Shown piece after piece: positions 10,699 through 64,000 of a DNA stretch of 64,000 nucleotides (position 1 is its first letter; the number at the start of each line of letters is the position of its first letter). Origin of the DNA: Enterobacter phage EspM4VN; the sequence record LC373201.2, one strand, 5' to 3'. The notes under the pieces are model-generated. The model did no database searches and was not told the DNA's origin. It was given only the letters and a program-made list of their open reading frames with translations. Both the position numbers and the translations under genes were made by a program.

Positions 10699-11562
10699 AT
10701 GACAACTACATTTTCTAAGAACGTGAATCTGAATCTGGCTTTCGGTAATGCAAAGGGCGATGTGACGTCGCCCGACTTCACTAAGATCCGCAACCAGGCC
10801 AAACTGGTACTGGAAGAAACTCGTGAACTGCTGGAAGCGGCTTATTTTGACCACGATGTAAAAATCGAGTTCACTGCTATTCCTCGCGAAGCCGCTGTAG
10901 TGGACATCAAAGATGTTATGCGACAAATCCTGGACGCCCAGGGTGACATCACCACTGTAAACGACGGCGTGGCGCACATTGCTGGTTTCGACGGCGACGA
11001 GTGCTTACAGCGCGTGTATGCCTCCAACATGAGCAAGTTCGTCCGCAGTAAAGATGAAGTTGTGCCAGCGCTGGACTACTATTACAACAAAGGCTTCCCA
11101 CGTGAAAGCCTGCGTATCGAAGGTGAATTCCCTCAGGCCTGCATCAAGGTGGTGGACACGATCACCGTTGACGGCAAAGAGTATCCAGCAGGTAAGTTCC
11201 TGAAGAACATGGCCACTTTCAAAGAGCCTGACTTCAGTGATATGCTGACCGCCGAGCCTAAGCGCCAGATCACCGAAATCATCGTGACGGGCACTGCCAC
11301 TGCGGGTCGAATGGGCATGAACGAATCCATGGGCGTTGCATACGCACCTTTCGATTTCCCAGAAGAGATCCTTCGGTACGCCGAGATGGGCTTCCAGGCG
11401 TATTCTGGGGAAGCGCTGGAGAGTTACATCCCTGTGTTTGAGCTGAACGAAGTAAACTTCCCGACTCTGCCTCTCCTGTGGGGTACGTGGAAAGCCAACA
11501 TCCGCGTTTACGTTTCCAGCCCAGTGCAATCTTCAATCACCCAGCTGACCCGTATCGATTAA
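10699..11562 (+). CDS. hypothetical protein (287 aa) at the position of T4 gene 43
   Basis: Long ORF; EETRELLEA motif is MazG/NTP-pyrophosphohydrolase-like only weakly; unknown. Confidence 0.5.
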   Translation: MTTTFSKNVNLNLAFGNAKGDVTSPDFTKIRNQAKLVLEETRELLEAAYFDHDVKIEFTAIPREAAVVDIKDVMRQILDAQGDITTVNDGVAHIAGFDGDECLQRVYASNMSKFVRSKDEVVPALDYYYNKGFPRESLRIEGEFPQACIKVVDTITVDGKEYPAGKFLKNMATFKEPDFSDMLTAEPKRQITEIIVTGTATAGRMGMNESMGVAYAPFDFPEEILRYAEMGFQAYSGEALESYIPVFELNEVNFPTLPLLWGTWKANIRVYVSSPVQSSITQLTRID

Positions 11563-11630: not shown

Positions 11631-12845
11631 ATGAAAGATAAAGCCCTGGACGTCCCGTACTGCGGTGTCCGTGAAGACAAGATAAAGTCGGCCAAACCGG
11701 TTCTCAGTCCGACCCATACCCGCCTGTCTTATGACTGGATGAGCGAGCGTTATAAGATCCACGTTCGAAAGGACGTCCAGCGTCTTCCTGCTCCTTGGAC
11801 TAACAATCCTATACTACGGCAGGTCAAGTTCTGTAACGTCCGGAGAGAGCACGACAGGCAGTCTCTCAACCTGATCAATAACATTGTCAAGAACGATGCT
11901 CTGGGCATGGCAGACAAGATGTTCAACTGCGTTCTGTTCCGCATGTTCAATCTCTGGGATCCGATTCAGGCTATCGGCGGCGCGATGACGATCAACGATT
12001 TCGCCAAGATTAATCTTGACGCAACCCGTGAACGTCTGCAGAAATTCGAGGCTGACGGTGGTAAGGTATTCACCAATGCCTTCAACACAGGCGGCCTGAA
12101 GCAATGCCTGGCTTTCCCTGAGCTGGTTGTCAACCACAAGGAGCAGCGCTTCGGTGGGATGATGGTGAAAGTGTATCGCGTTGGTCAGGGTATCGTTGAC
12201 GAGATGGATTACAAGGTCGCCAAAAAGCTCGCCGAAGAGAATCCTGGTGAGTACACCATCGAAGGATGGGAACCGTACATGCCAATGCGTGTCATCCGTT
12301 CCCTGAAGGCATTCGTCAACAAGTATCCAAATTACTTCCATGACCTGCTGCGCCTTGATACTCCTTTGGAAGTATACCAGCGCATGTATGACGACATCGA
12401 AGGGCTTGGTCCATTCTTGGCCTATCAGATCTGGGTTGATTTCACGTACATGCCTGGTTATCCTTTCAGCGAGAACCACTTCACGATCGCCGGACCAGGC
12501 TGTCGCGCAGGCATCGATCTGCTGTTCCTGAACAAAGACGGCATGACTCACGAAGAATGCATCTTCTGGTTGCGGGACAATCAGGACGCAGTGTACTCCC
12601 AATATGGGTATGTTCGCGAGCAATTCTGGTCGGCCGAAGAGCCTGTAGACCAATGCATGAACGTCATGCAGCTGGAGAACATGTTCTGTGAACTGAGCAA
12701 GTACACGCGCTGTGTTGAGGCCGTCGGGCGTGGTGAAAAACCTCGGGGCAAAGTCGGTTACAACGGCGGGGAAGTACATGTGTCGCCGCCAAAGACGCAT
12801 GTACTCTCCGTCAATCTACTCAACCGTTTGAAGAAACCTGAATAA
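11631..12845 (+). CDS. hypothetical protein (404 aa)
   Basis: Long ORF with RBS AAGAGGA; no motif recognised. Confidence 0.55.
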   Translation: MKDKALDVPYCGVREDKIKSAKPVLSPTHTRLSYDWMSERYKIHVRKDVQRLPAPWTNNPILRQVKFCNVRREHDRQSLNLINNIVKNDALGMADKMFNCVLFRMFNLWDPIQAIGGAMTINDFAKINLDATRERLQKFEADGGKVFTNAFNTGGLKQCLAFPELVVNHKEQRFGGMMVKVYRVGQGIVDEMDYKVAKKLAEENPGEYTIEGWEPYMPMRVIRSLKAFVNKYPNYFHDLLRLDTPLEVYQRMYDDIEGLGPFLAYQIWVDFTYMPGYPFSENHFTIAGPGCRAGIDLLFLNKDGMTHEECIFWLRDNQDAVYSQYGYVREQFWSAEEPVDQCMNVMQLENMFCELSKYTRCVEAVGRGEKPRGKVGYNGGEVHVSPPKTHVLSVNLLNRLKKPE

Positions 12846-12960: not shown

Positions 12961-14991
12961 ATGTCAGAATTTAAGCCCTTCGCAGTAGCTGTTAACAATA
13001 ACGTGCTGGCCATGTCGGCAACTGGTCTGTTCATGACCAATATCGATAAAGATGCTCTGTGGGATCTGTATCTGTCTTCTTTCCCTGCTGGTACCAACCC
13101 GCTTTACCGTGAGCGTACCGAGCACGACTGCACCTGCTGCAAACAATTCATCCGTAACATCGGCGGTGTGGTGACCATCACCCCTGATTACGAAATGATT
13201 ACTATCTGGGACGGTATTCAGCTGGGTAACGAATACGATGTTGTCGCTGCGGCGCTGTCTGCGTATGTTAAGCAGCACGCAATCGTCGACGTGTACTTCA
13301 ACGACACCAAGAAAGTCGGTGTTGAGTCGAATCACGAAATGAAAGACGGCAACGTCCGCACGTACAATCACTTCCACACCGACCTGCTCAGCAAATTCGT
13401 TTTGCGCGGCGACGACATTGCTTCTAAGAAGGGTGAAATCCGCCAGGCTGTAGAAGTATTTCGTCGCTCGGCTGAAGAATTGACTCTGGAGTCGGTTGAA
13501 ATCGTTCTGGAACTCATTGATCAGAATTCTCTGTACCGTGGCGACGAACACAAGCACACGGTCAAGAACTTCTTTGATTTCAAACGTAAACTGTTCCCTC
13601 GCGTTCAGCAAATGCCAGAAGCGCAGAAATCTATGTTCTACTGGTACGAAGGTACTCGTGAAAACGTGGCTCGTTCCTTGGGTATCCGAAACACTGTCAT
13701 CGGTACGTTGCTGCAAGATCTGTCAGAAGGCCGCGACCTGGAAACCGCCGTCAAGTCTTTCGAAGCCAAAGTCGCTCCGACGAACTACAAGCGCCCAACC
13801 GCGCTGGTCACGAAGTCCATGATCGAAAATGCGCAGAAAGAAGTTGAAGCGCTGGGGCTGACTGATTCGCTCGGCCGCCGTTATGCTGTGTATGACGACC
13901 TGACCATCAACAACGTCCTGTTCGCCGATCTGGCGGCTCAGAAGAAGATGGACCCGTTTGCTCAGCTGGCGTCTGAAGTGAAGACTCCGACCAAGTCCCT
14001 AGATAAGGTTGAAGAGATCACGATCGACGACTTCCTGGCCAATGTGCTGCCGAAAGCGCACTCAATGGAAGTGCTGGTTGAGAACTCTCATACTGGCAAC
14101 CTGATGTCTCTGATCGCTCCGGCTACCGCAGGCGCTCCTAACCTGTTCAAGTGGAACAACGGCTTCAGCTGGTCGTACAATGGCGAAGTGGCCGACTCCA
14201 TCAAAGAGCGTGTGAAGACAGCAGGCGGTAACGTCGACGGTTTCCTCCGTGTGTCGCTGGCGTGGCATAACAACGACGACCTGGACCTGAGCATGAACGA
14301 TCCGCTGCACAATCATGTGTATTACCACAACCGTCGTTCGGCAACTGGCGCAACCCTGGATATCGACATGAACGGTATGGACGGTATTGATCCAAACCGC
14401 CGTCCGGTTGAGAACATCTTCTTTAGCGATGAGCGCCGACTGCGTGATGGGGAATATAAATTCTATGTCACCAACTTTAGACAGCGCGAAACCTGTGATG
14501 CGGGCTTCGAAATCGAAGTCGAATACAAAGGTCAGACCAAGCGTTATTCGCATCCTGTTATGAAGGACAAAGATCGCATTCTGGCTGTTGTGATTGATGT
14601 CCGTGCTGGTCAGGTAGTGGATATTCGTTCAGACCTGAAAGACGATGCTCGCTCTCAGGAAATCTGGGGTATCAAGACTGCCGTCTTCCAGAAGGTGCAG
14701 CTGGTTCTGAACTCACCAAACCATTGGGACGGCGAGCAGACAGGCAACAAGCACGTGTTCTTCATCCTGGAAGGTTGTGCTAACCCTGTCGGCACCCGTG
14801 GCTTCTACAACGAGTATCTGAAGCCGGAACTGGATAAACACCGCAAGGTTTTTGAAATGTTAGGCGGTAAGATTAAGGTACAGCCAAGCACTGAGCAGCT
14901 GTCCGGTCTGGGCTTCTCCACCACCCAACGCAACCACGTGTTCGTGAAGGTGAGCGGCTCGTTCAACCGCACTGTGAAAGTTGTGTTCTAA
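12961..14991 (+). CDS. hypothetical protein (676 aa)
   Basis: Long ORF, optimal-looking codon usage, Cys cluster HDCTCCKQF; no family recognised. Confidence 0.55.
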   Translation: MSEFKPFAVAVNNNVLAMSATGLFMTNIDKDALWDLYLSSFPAGTNPLYRERTEHDCTCCKQFIRNIGGVVTITPDYEMITIWDGIQLGNEYDVVAAALSAYVKQHAIVDVYFNDTKKVGVESNHEMKDGNVRTYNHFHTDLLSKFVLRGDDIASKKGEIRQAVEVFRRSAEELTLESVEIVLELIDQNSLYRGDEHKHTVKNFFDFKRKLFPRVQQMPEAQKSMFYWYEGTRENVARSLGIRNTVIGTLLQDLSEGRDLETAVKSFEAKVAPTNYKRPTALVTKSMIENAQKEVEALGLTDSLGRRYAVYDDLTINNVLFADLAAQKKMDPFAQLASEVKTPTKSLDKVEEITIDDFLANVLPKAHSMEVLVENSHTGNLMSLIAPATAGAPNLFKWNNGFSWSYNGEVADSIKERVKTAGGNVDGFLRVSLAWHNNDDLDLSMNDPLHNHVYYHNRRSATGATLDIDMNGMDGIDPNRRPVENIFFSDERRLRDGEYKFYVTNFRQRETCDAGFEIEVEYKGQTKRYSHPVMKDKDRILAVVIDVRAGQVVDIRSDLKDDARSQEIWGIKTAVFQKVQLVLNSPNHWDGEQTGNKHVFFILEGCANPVGTRGFYNEYLKPELDKHRKVFEMLGGKIKVQPSTEQLSGLGFSTTQRNHVFVKVSGSFNRTVKVVF

Positions 14992-15035
14992 ACCTGATTT
15001 GAAACTGTAACCCATTCATCATTGAGGATAGTAAA

Positions 15036-15407
15036 ATGTTTGATAAAGCAACCCGTCTGAAACTGCGCTTCGAGTCTAACAAAGGTCTGCTGTCTGTTGA
15101 GCAGGTTTGGGACCTGAGCCTGACCGCTCTGAACGAAATGGCGAAAAGCCTGAGCCGTCAGGTGAAGGCAGCGGAAACCGATGAAGAAGATTTCATCGGC
15201 ACCAAAAGCAACGTTGACTCCGAACTGCAGCTGCGCTTCGACGTTGTCAAGCACATCATCGGCGTTAAGCTGAAAGAGCGTGACGACAGCAAAGACGCGG
15301 CAGAGCGTAAGGCGAACAACCAGGTTATCCTGGAACTGATCCAGCGTAAGAAACAGCAGGAGCTGGAAGGCAAATCTGTTGAAGAACTGGAAGCGCTGCT
15401 GAAATAA
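15036..15407 (+). CDS. hypothetical charged coiled-coil protein (123 aa)
   Basis: ORF with RBS GAGGA; followed by terminator. Confidence 0.5.
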   Translation: MFDKATRLKLRFESNKGLLSVEQVWDLSLTALNEMAKSLSRQVKAAETDEEDFIGTKSNVDSELQLRFDVVKHIIGVKLKERDDSKDAAERKANNQVILELIQRKKQQELEGKSVEELEALLK

Positions 15408-15428
15408 CCTGTCGGCCTCGGCCTGAGC

Positions 15429-15457
15429 AACCCCGCCATGTGCGGGGTTTCTTTTGG
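15429..15457 (+). terminator. rho-independent terminator
   Basis: CCCCGC-CATGT-GCGGGG then TTTCTTTTGG. Confidence 0.6.
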
Positions 15458-15466
15458 ACAAAGAAT

Positions 15467-15868
15467 ATGAAACCTGTCATCTGTGATTACTGCGGCCTCC
15501 CAGCCGAATTCGTCGGTGGTGATGTTCTCTACCCTCATCGCCCTGACCTTCGCAATCTGAAGTTCTGGGTTTGTACCCCATGTGACGCTCGTGTCGGTTG
15601 TCATACCCATGGCGACGGTAGACAGCCTCTGGGAAGGATGGCGAATGCCGCTCTCCGTGCCGAGAAGCAAAATGCCCATAGATCGTTTGACCCACTGTGG
15701 AAAAGCGGAGAAAGGAGCAGGAGCGACGCTTACAGTTGGCTGGCGCATAAGCTGGGGATCAAGAAGCGCGATTGCCATATCGGCTTGTTCGATATCGACA
15801 TGTGCCGTAAAGTAGTTGCTGTATGCAACCAATTACGGGAAACACAGAATGGCAACCATCAATCGTAA
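15467..15868 (+). CDS. zinc-finger protein, DUF3268-like
   Basis: MKPVICDYCGLPAEFVGGDVLYPHRPDL..FWVCTPCDARVGCH resembles the enterobacterial prophage DUF3268 family. Confidence 0.5.
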   Translation: MKPVICDYCGLPAEFVGGDVLYPHRPDLRNLKFWVCTPCDARVGCHTHGDGRQPLGRMANAALRAEKQNAHRSFDPLWKSGERSRSDAYSWLAHKLGIKKRDCHIGLFDIDMCRKVVAVCNQLRETQNGNHQS

Positions 15869-16643
15869 TGAACCCAAAGGTGTTGAGCTGAAGGGTAAAT
15901 CTGTTCGCGAAGGTCTGAAGCTGTCTCCAGACCTCCTGAAGTCACACATCGCCGAAGTCATCTATGAAGACCGTGAAGTCGGCGGCCACCGCGTCATCAC
16001 CTGCCACTTCAAGATGGACAACGGATTTATCGTCTGGGGCAAGAATAGCTCTACTTCCATCGACCCTGCCAACTTTGATGAAGAGTTGGGCAAGAAGCTG
16101 GCCTATGACAAGACCTTCTCCCAGTTGTGGGAACTGGAAGCCTACCGCGCCGTCGTAGAGAAGCAGATGTTGGAGGTGGCTACCGCCGATGCGAAGATAG
16201 ACATTTTCCAGTACATCTCCGAAAGGGGGAAGATAAATCAGATGGCTGGCATGGAATTCTTGAAAGGTCATGGCCAGTCTTTCTTGTTCCACCACTCACG
16301 AGATCCGAGTCGAGGGTTCGTTGCTGATTTTGTTCAAACAGACAATGAACGATACAACGACCAACACAACAGTAAAGCCCAAGCTGGGGTGGAAGCATAT
16401 CTGCGTTCGCACATGCTACCAGATGAACTGTATTCTGAACTCGTTGTTCGTCTGGCCAAGACTTGCGCGGCGGCTTACAAGGGTGGGATCTACTTTAATG
16501 CCACCACTTGGGATAAGATGAGCGCTGAAGAACAGAAAGACTGCTGTGAAGACATCAGGCGGCTCTTGCTGGCTCCGGTGGATTATATCCCAACCGACCA
16601 GAAGGACGCGCTGTTCAAGGCCATCGTAGACTCCTACAAATAA
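15849..16643 (+). CDS. Phage_gp49_66-family protein (N4 gp49-like N-terminal domain)
   Basis: HRVITCHFKMDNGFIVWGKNSSTSIDPANFDEELGKKLAYDKTFSQLWELEAYRA fits the family signature; start ATG 15849 overlaps the upstream gene. Confidence 0.5.
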   Translation: MATINRNEPKGVELKGKSVREGLKLSPDLLKSHIAEVIYEDREVGGHRVITCHFKMDNGFIVWGKNSSTSIDPANFDEELGKKLAYDKTFSQLWELEAYRAVVEKQMLEVATADAKIDIFQYISERGKINQMAGMEFLKGHGQSFLFHHSRDPSRGFVADFVQTDNERYNDQHNSKAQAGVEAYLRSHMLPDELYSELVVRLAKTCAAAYKGGIYFNATTWDKMSAEEQKDCCEDIRRLLLAPVDYIPTDQKDALFKAIVDSYK

Positions 16644-16674
16644 CTGAATTATCAAACTCCTTCAATAACAATGA

Positions 16675-16705
16675 CGCCCAGTATATTTGCTGGGCGTTTC
16701 AATTT
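16675..16705 (+). terminator. rho-independent terminator
   Basis: CGCCCAG-TATATTTG-CTGGGCG then TTTCAATTTG. Confidence 0.55.
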
Positions 16706-16753
16706 GTGCATCACAGTATAATACGGCTGTACAATACACCATGAGGCTACATT

Positions 16754-17608
16754 ATGTTTCGTTTGAAATTGAACGACCAAGATGTGTTCTACAAACACTT
16801 CACCTTCCCAGGTGGTGAGGAACACGTCAAGATCCAAAAGGCTGGCATCCCTGTCGGAAGAGTAAGAACCGTGGAAATCGAAGCCCATATCAAAACGTCG
16901 GCAGGCTTCATTGAACTGGCGCTATTAATGGACGCCTTGCGTGGTCTGGGTAACGTGGATCGCATGACGGAATATCACGTCACTATCCCTTACTTCCCAT
17001 ATGCCCGCCAGGATCGCCGTTGCGACTTTGGTGAGCCTCTGTCGGTGAAGTGGGCGGCTGAGTTCATCAATAGTATGAACTTTGACAATGTGTGGATCAA
17101 AGACCCTCACAGCAATGTCGTTACTTCTCTGATCAACAACGTCCATGTGGTCCCGCAAGATTACATCGTGCGTCAGTATCTGGGCTGGTTCATCCGTGGG
17201 AACAACGCTGTGTTGGTAGCCCCTGACGGCGGCGCGGCGAAGAAGACCGAAACCCTCAGCCTGTCATTGGATGGCGTTCCTGTTGTCTACGGGCACAAGA
17301 ATCGTGACACCAAGACTGGTGAGATCATTGGGGTGAGCATTACAAACCCTGAACTGATCAAAGACCGCTATCTGGTAGTGGTCGATGATATCTGTGACGG
17401 TGGGCGCACGTTTGTTGAGCTGGGCAAAGAGCTTCAGAAGCACAAGCCTAAGCACATGACGCTCTTCGTCACCCATGGCATCTTCAGCAAAGGTCTCTCT
17501 GTTTTCGACGGGATCTACGATGCTGTGTATGCCGACACTGTCTGGTGGGAGAACATCACCGCCGACGGTCTTCCTTTCAAAACTGAAAATACAGGACGTG
17601 TAAAATGA
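16754..17608 (+). CDS. ribose-phosphate pyrophosphokinase homologue (Prs/Adps-like)
   Basis: PRPP-binding loop VVVDDICDGGRTF; 284 aa; stop overlaps start of next gene (ATGA). Confidence 0.8.
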   Translation: MFRLKLNDQDVFYKHFTFPGGEEHVKIQKAGIPVGRVRTVEIEAHIKTSAGFIELALLMDALRGLGNVDRMTEYHVTIPYFPYARQDRRCDFGEPLSVKWAAEFINSMNFDNVWIKDPHSNVVTSLINNVHVVPQDYIVRQYLGWFIRGNNAVLVAPDGGAAKKTETLSLSLDGVPVVYGHKNRDTKTGEIIGVSITNPELIKDRYLVVVDDICDGGRTFVELGKELQKHKPKHMTLFVTHGIFSKGLSVFDGIYDAVYADTVWWENITADGLPFKTENTGRVK

Positions 17609-19269
17609 GCATGCGCCACTTAGATCCAATCCATGCAATCGACTTCTACAAATCAGGTCACATCTATCAATTCCCTGAAGGCAGCGAGCTGGTGTTCTCC
17701 AACGGAACTCCGCGTTCCAACAAACTGTTCAACTCTCACCTGCCGAAGAACGGCGTGGTGGTCTGGGGTATCCAGGGCTTCATGACCTGGTTCCACGAAC
17801 TGTTTGACGAAGCGTTCTTCCAGCGCCCAAAGGCCAAGGTGCTGAAGAAGTATGCCCGTCGCATGAACAAAGTGCTGGGACCAGGCCGCGTCGGCACAGA
17901 GCATATCGAAGCCCTGCACGACCTCGGCTACCTGCCTATCGAAGTCCGTGCTCTGCCTGAAGGCACCATGTGCCCGTATGGCGTTCCGGTGTATGTGATG
18001 TTCAACACCTTGCCGGAGTTCTACTGGCTGACCAACTATCTGGAGACTGTATTCAGCTCTGAGATCTGGAAGCCGATGACGAACGCCACCATCGCCCTGC
18101 ACTACAAAGCGTTGATGGTGAAAGCTGCTATCGCTACAGGCGTGTCGCCGGACCATTGGTTCATCGACTACCAAGGCCATGACTTCTCCTTCCGTGGTAT
18201 GAGCGGGTGGCATGACGCTGCGTCTTCCGGTTCCGGCCACCTGGTGTTCTTCAAAGGCACCGATACCAACCCTGCCCTAGACTTCGTTGAAGAGTACTAT
18301 GGCGCAGACATCGACGAAGACTATGTCGTTGCTGGCTCCGTTGCGGCTACCGAACACGCCGTGATGTGTATGGGCACGAAGGATGGCGAATTCGAAACCT
18401 TCCGCCGCCTGGTGCAGGACGTGTATCCTGATGGCATCGTCAGTATCGTGTCTGACGCGTGGGACTATTGGCAGGTCATCGACGACTATCTGCCTCGCCT
18501 GAAAGACATTATCATGGCACGCAACGGTAAAGTCGTGATCCGCCCTGACTCGGGCGACCCTGTACACATCGTTGGCGGCTACCGCATTGAATCATTCCGC
18601 AATCGTGGGACGCTTCAGTTAAGCAGCGTGTCCAGCAGCACCGAAGTCATTCACATCGAAGAGACGAACACCTATCACCTGATCACAGGCGAAGGCACGA
18701 TCAACTCTCTGATGGCAGATGACCGCAATATCATCAGCCGTTCTGAAGCGGTCGGCTCTATTCAACGCCTGTGGGAGATCTTTGGTGGCACCCAGACCGA
18801 AACTGGCCACTTCCTGTTGGATGAGCACATCGGTCTGATCTACGGTGACTCCATCACCCTGGCACGTGAAGACCAGATCTTTGGCCGTCTGGCTGGCCGG
18901 AACTTCGCTTCCATCAACGTGGTCTTCGGTATCGGTTCCTACACCTACCAGATGAACACCCGTGACAGCACTGGGACGGCGGTGAAAGCCACGGCTGGTA
19001 AAGTGAACGGTGAATTCCGTGAGATCTTCAAAGAGCCGAAGACTGACAAAGGCGGGACTAAAAAGTCTGCGCGTGGTTTCCTTAAAGTCATTAAAGACTC
19101 TCAGGGTAAACTAGTGTTGGTTGACGGTATCACCTTTGATCAGGTACAAGACGCCGACAACCAGCACCAGCTGGTGTACCGTGATGGTAAGTTCTCCAAC
19201 ACTCAGACTCTGGAAGATGCGCGTGTTCGTGCCGCTCCTCTGGTGGCGGAACTGGCCTCACAAATCTGA
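17605..19269 (+). CDS. nicotinamide phosphoribosyltransferase homologue (NAMPT/NadV or Namat-like)
   Basis: 554 aa; N-term MSMRHLDPIHAIDFYKSGHIYQFPEG typical of the NAMPT family. Confidence 0.85.
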   Translation: MSMRHLDPIHAIDFYKSGHIYQFPEGSELVFSNGTPRSNKLFNSHLPKNGVVVWGIQGFMTWFHELFDEAFFQRPKAKVLKKYARRMNKVLGPGRVGTEHIEALHDLGYLPIEVRALPEGTMCPYGVPVYVMFNTLPEFYWLTNYLETVFSSEIWKPMTNATIALHYKALMVKAAIATGVSPDHWFIDYQGHDFSFRGMSGWHDAASSGSGHLVFFKGTDTNPALDFVEEYYGADIDEDYVVAGSVAATEHAVMCMGTKDGEFETFRRLVQDVYPDGIVSIVSDAWDYWQVIDDYLPRLKDIIMARNGKVVIRPDSGDPVHIVGGYRIESFRNRGTLQLSSVSSSTEVIHIEETNTYHLITGEGTINSLMADDRNIISRSEAVGSIQRLWEIFGGTQTETGHFLLDEHIGLIYGDSITLAREDQIFGRLAGRNFASINVVFGIGSYTYQMNTRDSTGTAVKATAGKVNGEFREIFKEPKTDKGGTKKSARGFLKVIKDSQGKLVLVDGITFDQVQDADNQHQLVYRDGKFSNTQTLEDARVRAAPLVAELASQI

Positions 19270-56971: not shown

Positions 56972-57511
56972 TGGTCGATTACTGGTTGTTGGCGAACTTC
57001 CTGACGTTCGCTTTGTTGTTAGTGGTTGTGTTGGTCTGGGTGAAGTCATTCTTCACTCTGATTCACGCGTATGTGTATCAGATCAACTTCTATACACTGT
57101 CGCCATATCGTGACACGAACGTCCGTGCCGATCAACAGGCCGAGGCCATACTCTCGTATCAGTTTATCCATATGCGTGACAAAATGATTAAGCGCGTTGT
57201 GTTTTCTACAGTGGCGTTGCTGGTTATCATTATGGTTCGTTTCGTACTGACAACTGTGGGGTGTTCCATGCCGTTGTATGATTATCAATGTCAAGGGTGT
57301 GGCGATACCAAAACTCTGCGGAAATCCATCGCCGACCGCCATGAACCAGAGTCCAACCCATGCGTAGAGTGTGGATCGGAAGTGAAGATGGTCATCTATG
57401 CCCCGAAGATTGTTTCTGGGTTAAGGGACCACAGTCTGCGCCGGACTCCTTCAAGGACGTTCTGCGCACGATCAAGAAGAGTTCTGGCAAGGGGAACACG
57501 ATCGATGTCTG
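56968..57511 (+). CDS. membrane protein with FmdB-type zinc ribbon; -1 frame break near 57413
   Basis: Two TM helices, then MPLYDYQCQGCG...CVECG (CxxC..CxxC); downstream frame turns Arg-rich; restoring one T in TTT at 57413-57415 gives ..IYAPKIVFWVKGPQSAPDSFKDVLRTIKKSSGKGNTIDV, the FmdB-family tail. Confidence 0.45.
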
Positions 57512-58095: not shown

Positions 58096-59142
58096 ATGGG
58101 TAATTTATTCGACCGTCTGAAGCAGTCCCGTGGTCAGCAGACCGATGCAATGCAAGCGCGTCTGGCTCAGCAAGGTCAAAAGTCCGGCTTCCAGAAGGAT
58201 CCTCGCATCTGGAAATGGACTTGGAACAAAGATGGTATCTCCCAGAACACCATCCGCTTCCTGCCAGTTCCGCTGGTAGACATCAAGGCACAGGATGAAG
58301 GTACGATCGATAAAGATCAGATCCTTACCCCGTGCGCCATGGTGATGAAGCATCAGTTCCAGGGACCTGGTGGTTGGTACATCGAAAACTCACCTCAGAC
58401 GTTCGGCAACGACGATCCGGTGCGCGACCATGACCGCCCGCTGTGGAAGCAGCAGAAAGATACAAACGATGACAAGCTGAAAGACGTGCTGAAGAAGCGT
58501 CTGCCAGACACCAAATACTACGCCAACATCCTGGTGATTGAAGATGTCAACGTACCGGAAAACAACGGCAAGGTCTTCCTGCTGGAGTTCGGTCCTGCCA
58601 TCCTGAAGATCCTAGACCAGGCGCAGAATCCTAAGTTCCCAACCGACCCTAAATTCGATCCGTACGATCTGTGGGAAGGTGCGAACCTGAATCTGAAGCT
58701 CTTCAGTGAGCAGAAGAAGTTCGGGAACTGGGAAGGTCCGGTGGCTAACTTCTCCAACGTGAGCTGGGCTGCGCCTGCGCCGTTGAGCGACGATGAAGCC
58801 TACATGGAAGACGTGTGGTCTCGTGAACACAGCCTGTTTGAATTCTTCAATCCGGCTAACTTCAAGAGCTACGAAGATCTGGAAAAACGTCTGCGTAAAG
58901 TTCTGGCGATCCCTGATGACCAGCCTCTGGTTGAGAACGGCGCGGCCACTATGGCTCATGCACCGACCAGCCAGACTGCAGGTCAACAACCAGTGAAGCA
59001 ACAGACTGCCCAGGATAGCCTGAACCAACAGCAGTCTCAGCAGTCTCAGTCTGCTGTAAATCAGCAGTCGGCGGCTCAGCAGCCGGATCCGAAAGGCACA
59101 GGGTCGATCGAAGACTTTGAAGCGTTCCTGAAGCAAAACTGA
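58096..59142 (+). CDS. 32: ssDNA-binding protein gp32
   Basis: YYANILVIEDVNVPENNGKVFLLEFG vs T4 gp32 [26 protein letters not shown]; acidic C-terminal tail; RBS GAGGAA. Confidence 0.8.
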   Translation: MGNLFDRLKQSRGQQTDAMQARLAQQGQKSGFQKDPRIWKWTWNKDGISQNTIRFLPVPLVDIKAQDEGTIDKDQILTPCAMVMKHQFQGPGGWYIENSPQTFGNDDPVRDHDRPLWKQQKDTNDDKLKDVLKKRLPDTKYYANILVIEDVNVPENNGKVFLLEFGPAILKILDQAQNPKFPTDPKFDPYDLWEGANLNLKLFSEQKKFGNWEGPVANFSNVSWAAPAPLSDDEAYMEDVWSREHSLFEFFNPANFKSYEDLEKRLRKVLAIPDDQPLVENGAATMAHAPTSQTAGQQPVKQQTAQDSLNQQQSQQSQSAVNQQSAAQQPDPKGTGSIEDFEAFLKQN

Positions 59143-59146
59143 TAAC

Positions 59147-59176
59147 AAAGCCCTCTTCGGAGGGCTTTTTATTTGC
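59147..59176. terminator. bidirectional rho-independent terminator
   Basis: AAAGCCCTC-TTCG-GAGGGCTTT with T-run on + strand and A-run upstream (T-run for the convergent minus gene ending at 59169). Confidence 0.65.
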
Positions 59177-60110
59177 CCATCACGTCTTGCAATATCCCCA
59201 ACAGGCTCGTCTTCTCCGCCGCCGTCAGGTTGTCATTGCCCATGATGTCACGAGAGATACCCACTGAGATGCGCTCGAAGTCCTGCAGGCTAATCCCAGC
59301 CAGATTGTTCACCAATTGGTCCAGCTGTTTGTAAGCCAAGAGAGCCTCGCCTGTGAAGTTCCCTTCTTTCACCTTGCGATAAAGCTGTCCGGCTTTGGAG
59401 GCCGCAGTTTCCCAATCGCCACTGGCAAGAGCATCAGCAATCCCAAGAGGAAGAAAATCGCTGGCAAGGCTGCGTGTTTCATATTCAGTCTCCGATAGCA
59501 CTTTGTTGTATGAGAATGTGACATTGTACTGGTTGAACTGGTCTGTTGCGCCCTTGTCAAGTTCGATTGTGCTGAAGTTGATCGGGTGGCTTCGACGATG
59601 TATACACGGTGAACAACCTGGTCTTCGGTATCCAGCTGCTCAATACAGATGTCTGTTACGAAGTCTTCGTAATAACCCATCTTGGTCGTGTACGGATCAA
59701 AGATCAGATTCTTCCATTTGTCCATTACAGACTTTTCGTAGTAATCATTGGCAAGCAGGAATGTCAGGTCCAGATCCACGTTCGATTTGTTGTTCGGCAT
59801 CTTGATGTGGTTGCCGTTGTTGTTCATGGGCGTGGTGTCGATACCGACCCCTGGCATTCCAGCAACCATACACATCATCTGGAGGAACGGGATGTCTGGT
59901 TTGTCCCTCCAAAGAAAGCGTTTACAATACGTGCAGACTGTTTGAACAGATCACCAAATGAAGAACTGGTGGAGTACGCCTTGCCGTCATTGGTGAGGGT
60001 TGCATTACTGTCAAACACGCCAGGAGGAAGTGGGATGGTGACCCGAAACCGTTCTTGCGTGAGATCCCACGCTGCAACAATTCAGTGATGAAATTGCGAT
60101 AGTCTTCCAC
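59169..60110 (-). pseudogene. minus-strand gene of unknown function split into three ORFs by two frame breaks
   Basis: ORFs 59922..60110, 59369..59878 and 59169..59501 (all minus) are consecutive with protein-like segments and junk-like tails; GTG start at 60110. Confidence 0.45.
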
Positions 60111-60164: not shown

Positions 60165-60865
60165 ATGGCAAAGAACTCAGCAGGCGAAGAAGATCCGTTG
60201 CTGTTTCCGGCCGAGATGGACGCCCCCGAGTTGGTGAAGCGCTACATCCGCAAATACCGTCAACACTTCGGTCCTGAGGCGAAGCGTAATATCCGCCGCT
60301 CTCATGTGTGGTTCATGGAGCGTGTGTCGAAGGATGCCAACCTGACACCAAACCACATGAAGCAGGCGTTCGCCGAGAACAAGCGCCCTGTGCAGGGTGT
60401 GCGTTATATGGTCGGGCGTATGTTCTACTTCAAATATGATGCTCTGACGAAGGATGAACTACCCTACTGGATATGTACCCTCTGGTGTTCTTCTTCAACT
60501 TTGCCAAGGGCGATGGTATCACCTTCGGAGAGAAGGGTGTGACATACCTCTGGGGATTGAACATGCACTACCTGCCACCGAAGCTCAGGCTGTTAGTGTT
60601 CGAAGATCTCATCAAGTTGCGCAACGAACGGGCGTACCGTTCAAAGACGCGCCTGAAGCTCACTTGGGATGCCCTGAAGCGGTTCGCTAACCACCCGCTG
60701 TACAATCACTGTGTGAAGCTGTACCGCGCCGACCGCTTCCGCACTCAGCTCTATGAGATTGAGCCGCAGTACTGGGAAGTTGTCCTCTTCATGCGCACGG
60801 CTCGCTTCCAGAAACAGAGTCAGATGTCTGTGTGGAAAGATGCACGACGCGTTCATAAGAAGTAA
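60165..60865 (+). CDS. hypothetical protein (about 233 aa) with frame break at 60468-60470
   Basis: ORFs 60165..60542 and 60473..60865 overlap; adding one G to TGG at 60468-60470 gives ..KDELPYWDMYPLVFFFNFAKGDG.. continuous. Confidence 0.5.
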
Positions 60866-61682: not shown

Positions 61683-61749
61683 TTGGTTTTCAATATTGAC
61701 GTTGAAAGTTAATATTCACGCAAGTTCGCGCCCCGCTTGGCTGGGCGCT

Positions 61750-61778
61750 GTTTAACACGAAGGTGTTAACTTCTTTTC
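61750..61778 (+). terminator. rho-independent terminator
   Basis: TTAACAC-GAAG-GTGTTAA then CTTCTTTTC; preceded by a second hairpin GCGCC..GGCGC. Confidence 0.55.
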
Positions 61779-61789
61779 AATAAAAAGTG

Positions 61790-61818
61790 GTTTACATCTA
61801 TGAAAAATGCAGTATATT
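61790..61818 (+). promoter_or_regulatory. T4-type early promoter GTTTAC-N17-TATATT
   Basis: GTTTAC 61790-61795, TATATT 61813-61818. Confidence 0.55.
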
Positions 61819-61888
61819 ATGTTCTCACTACACGGTCAGAACAGCAATATGCCGCGAAGACGGTCTTAATAACGAAAGGGTTTTTATT

Positions 61889-62814
61889 ATGTCATATATT
61901 CTTCATGTAGAATCTGGTTCCAAATTTGATATTGAAGGCAAAGACGTTGCGGCTATCCAGGCTGAGATCAAGGCCGCAGGCCTGCTGATTGGCAACGTTA
62001 CCCTGCGCCGCATGGTTGAAGGTGCGCTTGAATCCGCTAACGGCTTCGAACTCATCGAAGGTCTGAGCGCTGAAGAGCAGGAAGAAACTCAGCAGGCTCT
62101 GGCGCAAGCCCAAGAGCAGGCCGATGCAACTGAAGCACTGAACGTAGCCGAAAACGTCGCTAACGATACCCCGATTTCTGCTGACGCAACTTCTGGTGTT
62201 GCTTCTGCTGGCGACGGCGTTGCTGACACCGATACTGGTGCCCAGGACGTGAAACCTGCTGAAGATGATCAGGCTGCCGACACTGGCACTTCTACCGCTT
62301 CATCCGATGCAATTAAAGACGCCGTGAATACTGCGCTGAAAGAAGGCGACCAGCCGTCTGACGCGAAGGTGGGTTCCCTGGCTTCCTCAATGCTGAAAGA
62401 AGCGGCGAAGGGCAAGACGTTGACGCCTATGCACCGCTGGAAGAGCGTAAGCGCCGCCACACCAAACGCGAAGAAATGGTTGACGCCGCTCGTGCGTCCG
62501 AGCACGGTGCTATCTTGGCCGCGATTGAAGCGGGTGTGGTTCCAGGCGTCTTCCTGAGCTATGTTAACCCTGACATGCGTTGGTTCCAGTTCCCTGTGAC
62601 CGAACTGGCGAACCCTGAAAACCTGCACGCCCGCACCAACACATACGTTGATGTCGCGCCTATCGTTTCTGGTGGTTGGGGCTTTAGTCTGTACGTGAAC
62701 GGCAAGTCTTTCACCAAACGCCAGAAGATCAAAGAGGCTGATGCCGAGTCTCTGGTCAAAGCAATCAACGCATGGTTGCCTCAGGCGCTGGCCGAAGCGA
62801 AAGCTGCTGCGTAA
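61889..62814 (+). CDS. acidic low-complexity protein (about 308 aa) with frame break near 62417
   Basis: ATG 61889 gives MSYILHVESGSKFDIEG... with a Glu/Asp/Ala/Gln-rich middle; frame switches to ..DVDAYAPLEERKRRHTKREEMVDAARASEHG.. ending at 62814; adding one G at 62416-62417 repairs it. Confidence 0.5.
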
Positions 62815-62868
62815 TTTAAGTTCAGAAGCTGTTCAATAGATGAAGGGCTGCTATAATAGCAGCTCCTT

Positions 62869-63564
62869 TTGTTTATCGGAGCAGTCTATGTCCTACTCCC
62901 TCAAGGGCTACTGAAGCGCCCCGTACACACATTTGTCAAGCCGCCTGTCGTAAAGGGATCTATCCGGCACGGGGGCAACTCTATTACGTCAAAGGCTCCA
63001 ACGGTAGTGGTAAATCAACCGTGCCTTCTCAGCTGGCGGAGAGGATCCTCGGGCATATGTCGTGACGCATGATGGCAAGATCATGTTGACCGTCTGCCCT
63101 TCGTTCAACGTCATCTGTGTCGGCAAATACGATAAATCGAACTCCAAAGGGTTGACACCCTGAAGGATACTGAACAAATGCTGTTTGCCCTGAGCATCGC
63201 CGATCTACCTGAATATCAGGTATACGATGTGATCTTTGAAGGCATCATCCCTTCAACTCTGCTGAGTTCCTGGATCCCCCGCCTGACGCGCCCACCGCGC
63301 GAACTGGTCGTGCTCTTCATGGACACGCCTCTTGAAACCTGCATCGCCCGTGTCAAATCACGCAACGGCGGCGCGGACTTCAATGAAAGTCTGGTGGTCG
63401 AGAAGTGGGAGCGCGTTCAGGACCACCGCCAGCGCCATAAGGGCTTGTTCCCTACGGTGGCCGCAGGTATGATGAAGTCTCACGGTCTAACAGTAGACCA
63501 GGCTGTAATGGCATTCCTCTGTCGTGATTTTGGGAGTATTGATGATGGAAATCAAAGCAATTAA
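62869..63564 (+). pseudogene. P-loop (PNK-like) kinase gene broken into at least three frames
   Basis: Walker A YYVKGSNGSGKSTVPSQLAERILG (cf. T4 PseT [22 protein letters not shown]); downstream ELVVLFMDTPLETCIARVKSRNGGADF vs T4 PNK [27 protein letters not shown]; pieces lie in three frames. Confidence 0.4.
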
Positions 63565-64000
63565 CAACAATGACATGCTGAAGCAGGCTGTCTTGGCTAT
63601 CCGTGAGCACGGAATTGAATCTGATCCTGGTAATGCGGAGATCAACACTGACGGCACTCGCTTCCTTGATGGCGTGACGATTACCGTCTCTGACATCCGC
63701 GATCGCTGGCTGTCTGTTGAAGGCGCAATTCATCAGCCATCGCCGCCATCGGCGAGACGTTCTGGGTTCTGTCTGGGCGCGATGATGTTCGCTTCCTGTC
63801 CCGCGTGTTACCCCGCGCCGCCAACTTTTCTGACAACGGTCACACATGGCGAGCCGCTTATGGTCCGCGTCTGTACGCCCATGGCCAGCTGGATAGCGTT
63901 ATCAACCGCCTGCGCAAGAACCCAAACACCCGCCAGGCGTACCTCACCATCTATGATCCGGCTCTGGATTCGGATGCTGGTCTGGCGAAGTTCAGCGAGA
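63542..64000 (+). CDS. thymidylate-synthase-family pyrimidine hydroxymethylase/TS (5' portion; frame break near 63730; truncated by window end)
   Basis: ATG 63542 after GGGAG; other frame reads ..GETFWVLSGRDDVRFLSRVLPRAANFSDNGHTWRAAYGPRLYAHGQLDSVINRLRKNPNTRQAYLTIYDP, matching TS/dCMP-HMase motifs (ELLWFLRG.., GPVYGFQWR, Q.D.V...L..NP.SRR). Confidence 0.55.
   Translation, partial: MMEIKAINNNDMLKQAVLAIREHGIESDPGNAEINTDGTRFLDGVTITVSDIRDRWLSVEGAIHQPSPPSARRSGFCLGAMMFASCPACYPAPPTFLTTVTHGEPLMVRVCTPMASWIALSTACARTQTPARRTSPSMIRLWIRMLVWRSSAR

Follow-up and report, generated by a model that had tools for sequence, protein, structure and literature searches.

A predicted 5-hydroxymethyluracil DNA kinase and dUMP hydroxymethylase gene pair for thymidine hypermodification in Enterobacter phage EspM4VN

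Introduction

A described thymidine hypermodification system close to the one considered here is that of Salmonella phage ViI, in whose DNA 5-(2-aminoethoxy)methyl-deoxyuridine (5-NeOmdU) has been shown. 5-hydroxymethyluracil DNA kinase (5-HMUDK) co-associates with dUMP hydroxymethyltransferase, and Table 1 of the 5-HMUDK-encoding phages includes LIMEstone (NC_019925) (Lee et al. 2018, PMC5889632). Five such kinases, namely, ViI gp67, ViI gp243, M6 gp54, phiW-14 gp37 and SP10 gp186, each turn the 5-hydroxymethyl-deoxyuridine (5-hmdU) of SP8 DNA into 5-phosphomethyl-deoxyuridine (5-phosphomethyl-dU) in vitro, with ATP as the donor and ADP as the sole by-product (Lee et al. 2021, PMC8989533). 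For Dickeya phage PP35, the published assignments are dUMP hydroxymethyltransferase for ORF43, kinase for both ORF44 and ORF183, a pyridoxal phosphate (PLP) enzyme for ORF169, and aGPT-Pplase for both ORF113 and ORF187 (PMC6336734). According to a 2024 review, the modification genes are conserved family-wide (PMC11721090). Here we describe the related locus in a 64,000-nucleotide (nt) stretch of Enterobacter phage EspM4VN (sequence record LC373201.2; the whole stretch is referred to below as the window), the last 1.1 kb of which hold a gene for a P-loop kinase followed by the start of a gene for a homologue of thymidylate synthase (TS). Judging from sequence comparisons, it is very probable that the two correspond to the conserved Ackermannviridae gene pair, 5-HMUDK and dUMP hydroxymethylase, which starts thymidine hypermodification.

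The first-pass annotation of this DNA had read a Walker-A kinase and a TS-family enzyme in its last 1.1 kb, had noted frame breaks in both genes, and had proposed the pair as a candidate start of thymidine hypermodification, with the architecture of a 5-hmdU kinase adjacent to a hydroxymethylase. All the peptides it quoted are present, four single-base deletions are found in the kinase and one in the TS homologue, and the architecture is supported by an orthologue of ViI gp67, by the same synteny and by the grouping of the TS homologue with hydroxymethylases. The function proposed for the pair therefore stands, but its status as a new candidate does not. Publications from 2013 to 2021 already describe the gene pair, what it does and how it is conserved throughout Ackermannviridae, and both LIMEstone and PP35 are covered by the papers cited above. 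With its closest relatives annotated this way in print, the locus carries little weight as a discovery, and the sole point of novelty left is whether the base made by Aglimvirinae is exactly that of ViI.

Kinase gene and its family

The kinase gene (62888..63564, + strand) starts with ATG at 62888, eight bases after GGAG, and ends with the stop codon at 63562-63564. Position 62869 is the TTG of a mechanical open reading frame (ORF) and not the start of the kinase; the mechanical ORF list splits the kinase region into 62869-63072, 63062-63163 and 63178-63564. The Walker A motif GSNGSGKST (62994-63020) lies in the frame from 62871, whereas LFMDTPLETCIARVKSRNG, GETFWVLSG and HTWRAAYGPRLYAHGQLDSVINRLRKNPNTRQ lie in a different one, the frame from 62869. 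After four single-base insertions the repaired kinase has 226 amino acids (aa), or 220 aa if the T that two relatives have at 63543, and the window lacks, was likewise lost through an error.

The repaired 226-aa kinase scores 351 bits (cut-off 27; E-value = 2e−105) with the Pfam family PF18748 (HMUDK_HMUD1, '5-hmdU DNA kinase'), and the match spans positions 1-195 of the 196-position profile. The kinase is 87% identical to ViI gp67 (YP_004327432, orf00067) over 220 residues, 95% identical to LIMEstone1 ORF046 and 97% identical to proteins of Shigella Ag3 and SKML-39. Since the kinase and ViI gp67 have the same neighbouring genes, they are positional orthologues. A sequence search of the PDB with the kinase returned P-loop noise only (CFTR, ABC transporters), no solved 5-HMUDK structure being detectable by sequence.

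Several public records name this protein differently. LIMEstone1, XF4, PP35 and others carry the annotations 'putative thymidylate kinase' and 'putative thymidylate synthase', according to which the two genes would encode ordinary enzymes making dTMP and dTDP for replication. As far as the kinase is concerned, this is contradicted by the Pfam Thymidylate_kin model, which yields an E-value of only 0.2 compared to 2e−105 for HMUDK, by the substrate of ViI gp67, which is DNA and not dTMP (PMC8989533), and by a separate gp1-like deoxynucleoside monophosphate (dNMP) kinase gene that follows the TS gene in the relatives. The label 'thymidylate kinase' in several GenBank records is a mislabel of 5-hmdU DNA kinase. 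The second label, 'terminase small subunit', is found in RefSeq (NC_015296, NC_019925, NC_019910 and others) and in PHROG 800, which the kinase matches with an E-value of 1.7e−69. However, of the 511 profile positions only 4-224 are matched, the protein matches HMUDK over its full length and possesses a Walker A motif, ViI gp67 has demonstrated kinase activity, and the small terminase subunit of ViI is encoded by a separate gene, Vi01_162c, directly beside that of the large terminase. We attach practically no probability to a terminase function, and the label looks like a propagated misannotation. With such kinase labels in the public databases, automated pipelines will mislabel the 5-hmdU DNA kinase.

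It had also been suggested that the kinase resembles T4 polynucleotide kinase (Pnk), in which case it might act as a 5′-kinase on nucleic-acid ends. The likeness turned out to be that of a generic P-loop. Weak matches do exist, to PHROG 505 'polynucleotide kinase' (E-value = 4.6e−4) and to Pfam AAA_33 (E-value = 3.7e−5, below the cut-off and restricted to the P-loop), but the E-value for PF18748 is lower by about 100 orders of magnitude, no polynucleotide kinase occurs among the 60 best PDB matches with E-values up to 10, and a single-domain kinase of 220-226 aa has no room for a 3′-phosphatase domain. None of the Pfam models for AAA_33, dNK, Zeta toxin or thymidylate kinase reached its cut-off with the repaired kinase (E-values from 4e−5 to 0.2). 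A Pnk-type activity is thus exceedingly improbable, and any relation of 5-HMUDK to Pnk-type kinases would be suggested by weak profile matches only.

Relatives differ at the junction between the kinase and TS genes (63540-63564). In the window it reads GATGATGG, which gives a 226-aa kinase and a 20-nt overlap with the TS gene. In two close relatives, Logan contig L011 (SRR22111717) and IMG/VR contig L015, the junction reads GATTGATGG, corresponding to a 220-aa kinase with its TGA overlapping the ATG of the following gene, while LIMEstone1 has 78 extra nt resulting in a 240-aa kinase and an intergenic spacer. The longer, 226-aa form may be natural, because a protein of Salmonella phage Marshall matches it over the whole 226 residues.

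Frame breaks at the end of the window

Alignment to LIMEstone1, L011 and L015 places single-base deletions in the kinase, as read, at about 62905, 62955, 63043 and 63149-63151, and one single-base deletion in the TS homologue at 63722-63724. Inserting one base per site restores the 226-aa kinase and a clean 152-aa N-terminus of the TS homologue. All break sites are intact in three independent relatives. The frame-broken sequence had no exact match in IMG/VR, whereas the repaired version matched one 5.6-kb uncultivated virus genome, which was used as the third reference for the break sites.

Taken at face value, five frame breaks within 1.1 kb would mean that both the kinase and the hydroxymethylase are lost from the phage or from a defective copy of it, and that the two genes are pseudogenes. 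The distribution of the breaks suggests otherwise. Compared with the three relatives, the window carries 16-19 uncompensated single-base deletions between positions 57258 and 63724, whereas in the upstream 57 kb single-base indels occur only in nearby compensating pairs, as is typical of alignments of diverged sequences. Nearly all of the deletions (12 of 14 in the comparison with L015) are losses of one G from a run of Gs on the + strand; the same stretch has 12 runs of G4 in L011 and five in the window, with no change in the runs of C, A or T. The same deletions break the gp54-type tail-tube gene (59169-60110, − strand) and the gp2-type DNA end protector gene (60165-60865), both of which a viable phage needs, as well as a gene for an acidic protein (61889-62814). 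Apart from the indels, the codons are under strong purifying selection: after repair, the ratio of synonymous to non-synonymous codon differences from relatives is 30:6 for the kinase (versus L011) and 24:1 for the TS fragment, and there are neither substitution-generated stops nor larger deletions. Real loss of the two genes is therefore highly improbable. Because the G-run losses affect one strand and the last 7 kb only, hit essential structural genes and are accompanied by mostly synonymous differences, we infer that the frame breaks most probably represent strand-specific homopolymer errors of sequencing or assembly in a poorly covered stretch and not gene decay.

Programmed frameshifting was considered as well and rejected: it would take four shifts in 680 nt, all of them at G-runs, and the same pattern recurs in unrelated neighbouring genes. 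Systematic G-run deletions of this kind in the last 7 kb would lead gene callers to report pseudogenes.

Thymidylate synthase homologue

The gene for the TS homologue (63545..64000, + strand) starts with ATG at 63545, overlapping the kinase stop, and the end of the window leaves 152 of its approximately 348 codons, that is, the N-terminal 44%. Based on the repaired frame, orthology and the match to PHROG 3676 (E-value = 5e−90), we predict that it encodes the N-terminus of a TS-superfamily dUMP 5-hydroxymethylase, orthologous to ViI Vi01_060c and LIMEstone1 'td'. Over the shared 152 aa the identity of the fragment to the proteins of L011 and LIMEstone1 is 99%, and that to the ViI protein encoded beside gp67 is 88%. 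The full-length orthologues served as proxies for the TS homologue beyond the end of the window.

Membership in the superfamily and distance from genuine thymidylate synthases are both evident from profile comparisons. Against Pfam PF00303 the fragment alone scores 20.0 bits (cut-off 24.3) and the full-length orthologue 57.5 bits. Against the NCBIfam equivalog models of ThyA, which have cut-offs of 108-405 bits, full-length orthologues score only 36-56 bits, the best value being 55.6 compared to the required 327 (NF002495); for TIGR03284 the corresponding values are 39.9 and 108. The nearest solved structure is the CMP 5-hydroxymethylase MilA (E-value = 2e−17), while thymidylate synthases follow with E-values of 1e−8 to 1e−6. 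Outside the family, the nearest phage homologues come from Ralstonia RP13, M6-type Pseudomonas phages (1e−27) and the SPO1 genus (9e−25), a group with hmU in its DNA, and one of the M6-type proteins is annotated as deoxyuridylate hydroxymethyltransferase. For T4-type td the E-value is 7e−6.

To compare individual positions, we aligned the fragment with E. coli ThyA (checked against PDB 1AOB), T4 gp42, M6-type and SPO1-genus enzymes and the three orthologues from L011, LIMEstone1 and ViI. Within the window fragment, residues E71, W74, Y106 and R130, which correspond to E58, W61, Y94 and R127 of E. coli ThyA, are invariant across the alignment. Where ThyA has 'TIWDEWAD', which includes the cofactor-shielding motif W80/W82, the fragment has 'RAANFSD', and it possesses a (F/Y)SD(D/N)G motif common to M6-type and SPO1-type enzymes. 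The codons of the catalytic Cys and of the base-specifying Asn lie beyond position 64000, and these residues are seen only in the orthologues. In all three, the catalytic Cys is part of 'CNLALLF' and is followed by Asn in place of the ThyA His (His147), and Asn is also found at the uracil-specifying N177 position ('GMSSIN'), at which T4 gp42 has Asp. In addition, the short C-terminus of ThyA with its cofactor-closing carboxylate is replaced in the orthologues by an unrelated C-terminal extension of about 110 residues.

These features fit a dUMP-specific hydroxymethylase. To our knowledge, no sequence rule proves addition of water rather than hydride transfer, which is why the hydroxymethylase activity is stated here as a prediction. 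An ordinary thymidylate synthase, as the GenBank labels would have it, could account for the full-length orthologue passing PF00303 and keeping Asn at the uracil-specifying position, and it would agree with the predominance of canonical T in ViI virions (PMC11721090). On the other hand, the TS homologue falls far below all ThyA equivalog cut-offs, lacks WDEW, His147 and the ThyA C-terminus, and is closer to hydroxymethylases. Taking into account also what was said above about the kinase, we consider it very unlikely that the two genes encode an ordinary thymidylate kinase and thymidylate synthase.

Proposed pathway

The steps of the pathway can be outlined from orthology to characterised proteins. 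Prior to replication, the TS homologue would add the methylene group of 5,10-methylene-tetrahydrofolate to C5 of dUMP by means of its catalytic cysteine, and the intermediate would be resolved by water instead of hydride, giving 5-hmdUMP. The gp1-like dNMP kinase and the dUTPase-like enzyme, encoded directly downstream in all relatives (past the window end), might then convert it, together with host NDP kinase, into 5-hmdUTP, which the phage polymerase would incorporate instead of T. After replication, the P-loop 5-HMUDK would move the gamma-phosphate of ATP onto the hydroxymethyl group of 5-hmdU in DNA, resulting in 5-phosphomethyl-dU. If the remaining steps proceed as in ViI, aGPT-Pplase2 gp247 would swap the phosphate for serine, and the PLP enzyme gp226 would decarboxylate the product to 5-(2-aminoethoxy)methyl-dU, protecting the DNA from restriction enzymes. 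The genes for gp247 and gp226 lie outside the window and are conserved in the closest relatives.

Several points weigh against this assignment. The catalytic half of the TS homologue is outside the window. Both genes are broken as read, and it is only probable that this is an artefact. As far as we could find in the literature, hydroxymethylation by the ViI-type TS homologue has itself been deduced from the chemistry of virion and replicating DNA and from homology, not from an assay of the purified enzyme. The structure of the PP35 modification is described as still undetermined (PMC6336734). Even in ViI virion DNA, about 60% of the thymidines are canonical (PMC11721090). Nevertheless, we regard the assignment of the pair to the start of thymidine hypermodification as very probable, as stated at the outset.

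How the pathway ends is a separate question. Aglimvirinae may finish it unlike ViI and arrive at a thymidine hypermodification other than 5-NeOmdU, although we think this unlikely. In a weaker variant of the same idea, the one-strand G-run deletions would be the footprint that modified DNA leaves on sequencing chemistry, and not an ordinary low-coverage error.

Other pathway genes

The first-pass annotation had suggested comparing the repaired proteins with 5-HMUDK and ThyA and looking for an aGPT-Pplase gene. The comparison gave the full-length PF18748 match and the sub-cut-off ThyA scores reported above, and the search also succeeded. An intact orthologue of ViI gp160 (aGPT-Pplase clade 1; 404 aa) is encoded at 11631..12845 on the + strand, with 84.5% identity over 407 aa in a tblastn search and an E-value of 7e−82 against Pfam PF18723 (HMUDK_hel). 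It is located 50 kb upstream of the kinase/TS pair and belongs to the published hypermodification gene set. The adjoining gene (10699..11562, + strand) is an orthologue of ViI gp161 (tblastn, 60.7% identity over 287 aa). The name 'MazG-like pyrophosphatase' comes from the ViI RefSeq record, and the product of 10699..11562 had no Pfam match; it might have a role in clearing deoxynucleoside triphosphate pools.

ViI gp226 (PLP decarboxylase), gp243 (second kinase) and gp247 (serine:DNA transferase), the genes of which are located near the DNA polymerase gene in ViI, had no tblastn match in the window; in related genomes all three are found at other places. However, gp247 is present, outside the region corresponding to the window, in all 19 Dickeya relatives, with 88.6% identity. 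Tblastn searches of the window found no second paralogue of either TS or the kinase.

Source phage and locus layout

To place the window among known phages, we ran megablast against phage genomes with positions 61700-64000 and 39001-64000 as queries. The window is matched by 19 genomes of Dickeya Limestonevirus (LIMEstone1, PP35, XF4 and others) at 91.6-92.4% nucleotide identity over 94-100% of the query, followed by Agtrevirus and Kuttervirus phages. The contigs L011 and L015 are nearer to the window, with 96% nucleotide identity. Based on these identities to Limestonevirus, L011 and L015, the window is assigned to an Ackermannviridae genome of the subfamily Aglimvirinae.

In the window, as in LIMEstone1 and ViI, genes for a gp32-type single-stranded DNA (ssDNA)-binding protein, a gp54-type tail-tube protein and a gp2-type DNA end protector come first, followed by two or three small ORFs and then by the kinase and TS genes. 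In relatives, the genes past the point at which the window ends encode the gp1-like dNMP kinase, the dUTPase-like protein, an ACT-domain protein and UvsX. The acidic-protein gene is separated from the kinase start by a terminator-like hairpin with a T-tract (62845..62875, + strand), in which the stem at 62845-62865 is followed by CTTTTGTTTA. This hairpin, the left arm of which is hit by one single-base deletion (62845-62847), is the counterpart of the 'putative factor-independent terminator' annotated in LIMEstone1. A sigma-70-like promoter (TTTACA, a spacer of 16-18 nt, and TATATT or TATTAT) at 61791-61820, upstream of the acidic-protein gene, coincides with what the LIMEstone1 annotation calls a 'putative early promoter'. 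Neither the kinase gene nor the TS gene has a promoter-like site to itself, and both are located behind the terminator-like hairpin; for this reason they may be expressed by read-through past it.

Two further observations concern the window at large. The gp32-type ssDNA-binding protein (58096-59142) is 100% identical to its counterparts in several Dickeya phages (Ds20CZ, Ds23CZ, PP35) and the Logan contig, although the DNA surrounding its gene is only 92-96% identical. A segment of about 5 kb (13773-18953; ORFs 16754-17608 and 17605-19269) has no counterpart in LIMEstone1. One of its products is similar to phosphoribosyl pyrophosphate synthetase (Pfam Pribosyltran and Pribosyltran_N), and another is a phosphoribosyltransferase of the NAMPT/NadV type with 554 aa (Pfam NAPRTase, E-value = 2e−31); nadV of LIMEstone1 is only a 110-aa remnant. 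The 676-aa ORF at 12961-14991 had no Pfam match.

Comparison with known systems

The system of ViI, with gp67 and Vi01_060c at the start of the 5-NeOmdU pathway, resembles the EspM4VN locus in the sequences of the kinase (87%) and of the TS N-terminus (88%), in local gene order, in the Pfam family of the kinase and in the presence of gp160, which has an orthologue in the window. The two differ in subfamily, ViI belonging to Cvivirinae and the window to Aglimvirinae, and the chemistry of the latter lineage is predicted. Furthermore, the ViI kinase is without the six extra C-terminal residues and the overlap with the TS start that the window kinase shows as read.

LIMEstone1 ORF046/ORF045 and PP35 ORF44/ORF43 are more similar, with 91.6% nucleotide identity across the locus, 95% and 99% identity for the kinase and the TS fragment, respectively, and the same flanking genes, LIMEstone1 differing by the additional 78 nt at the 3′ end of the kinase gene and by the spacer that precedes the TS gene. 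Closer than LIMEstone1 are L011 and L015 (96%), in both of which the kinase and TS genes abut.

Among more distant systems, the dUMP hydroxymethylases of the SPO1 genus and of M6-type Pseudomonas phages share with the TS homologue the TS fold and the (F/Y)SD(D/N)G motif, and with its orthologues the Cys-Asn pair, the base-specifying Asn and a long C-terminal extension. Yet they are only 29-31% identical to it, and their C-terminal extensions are not established as homologous. The CMP 5-hydroxymethylase MilA (PDB 5B6D/5JNH) and the dCMP hydroxymethylase gp42 of T4 are likewise TS-superfamily hydroxymethylases. Both, however, act specifically on cytosine and carry Asp where the orthologues of the window protein have Asn, and T4 gp42 is only 18% identical.

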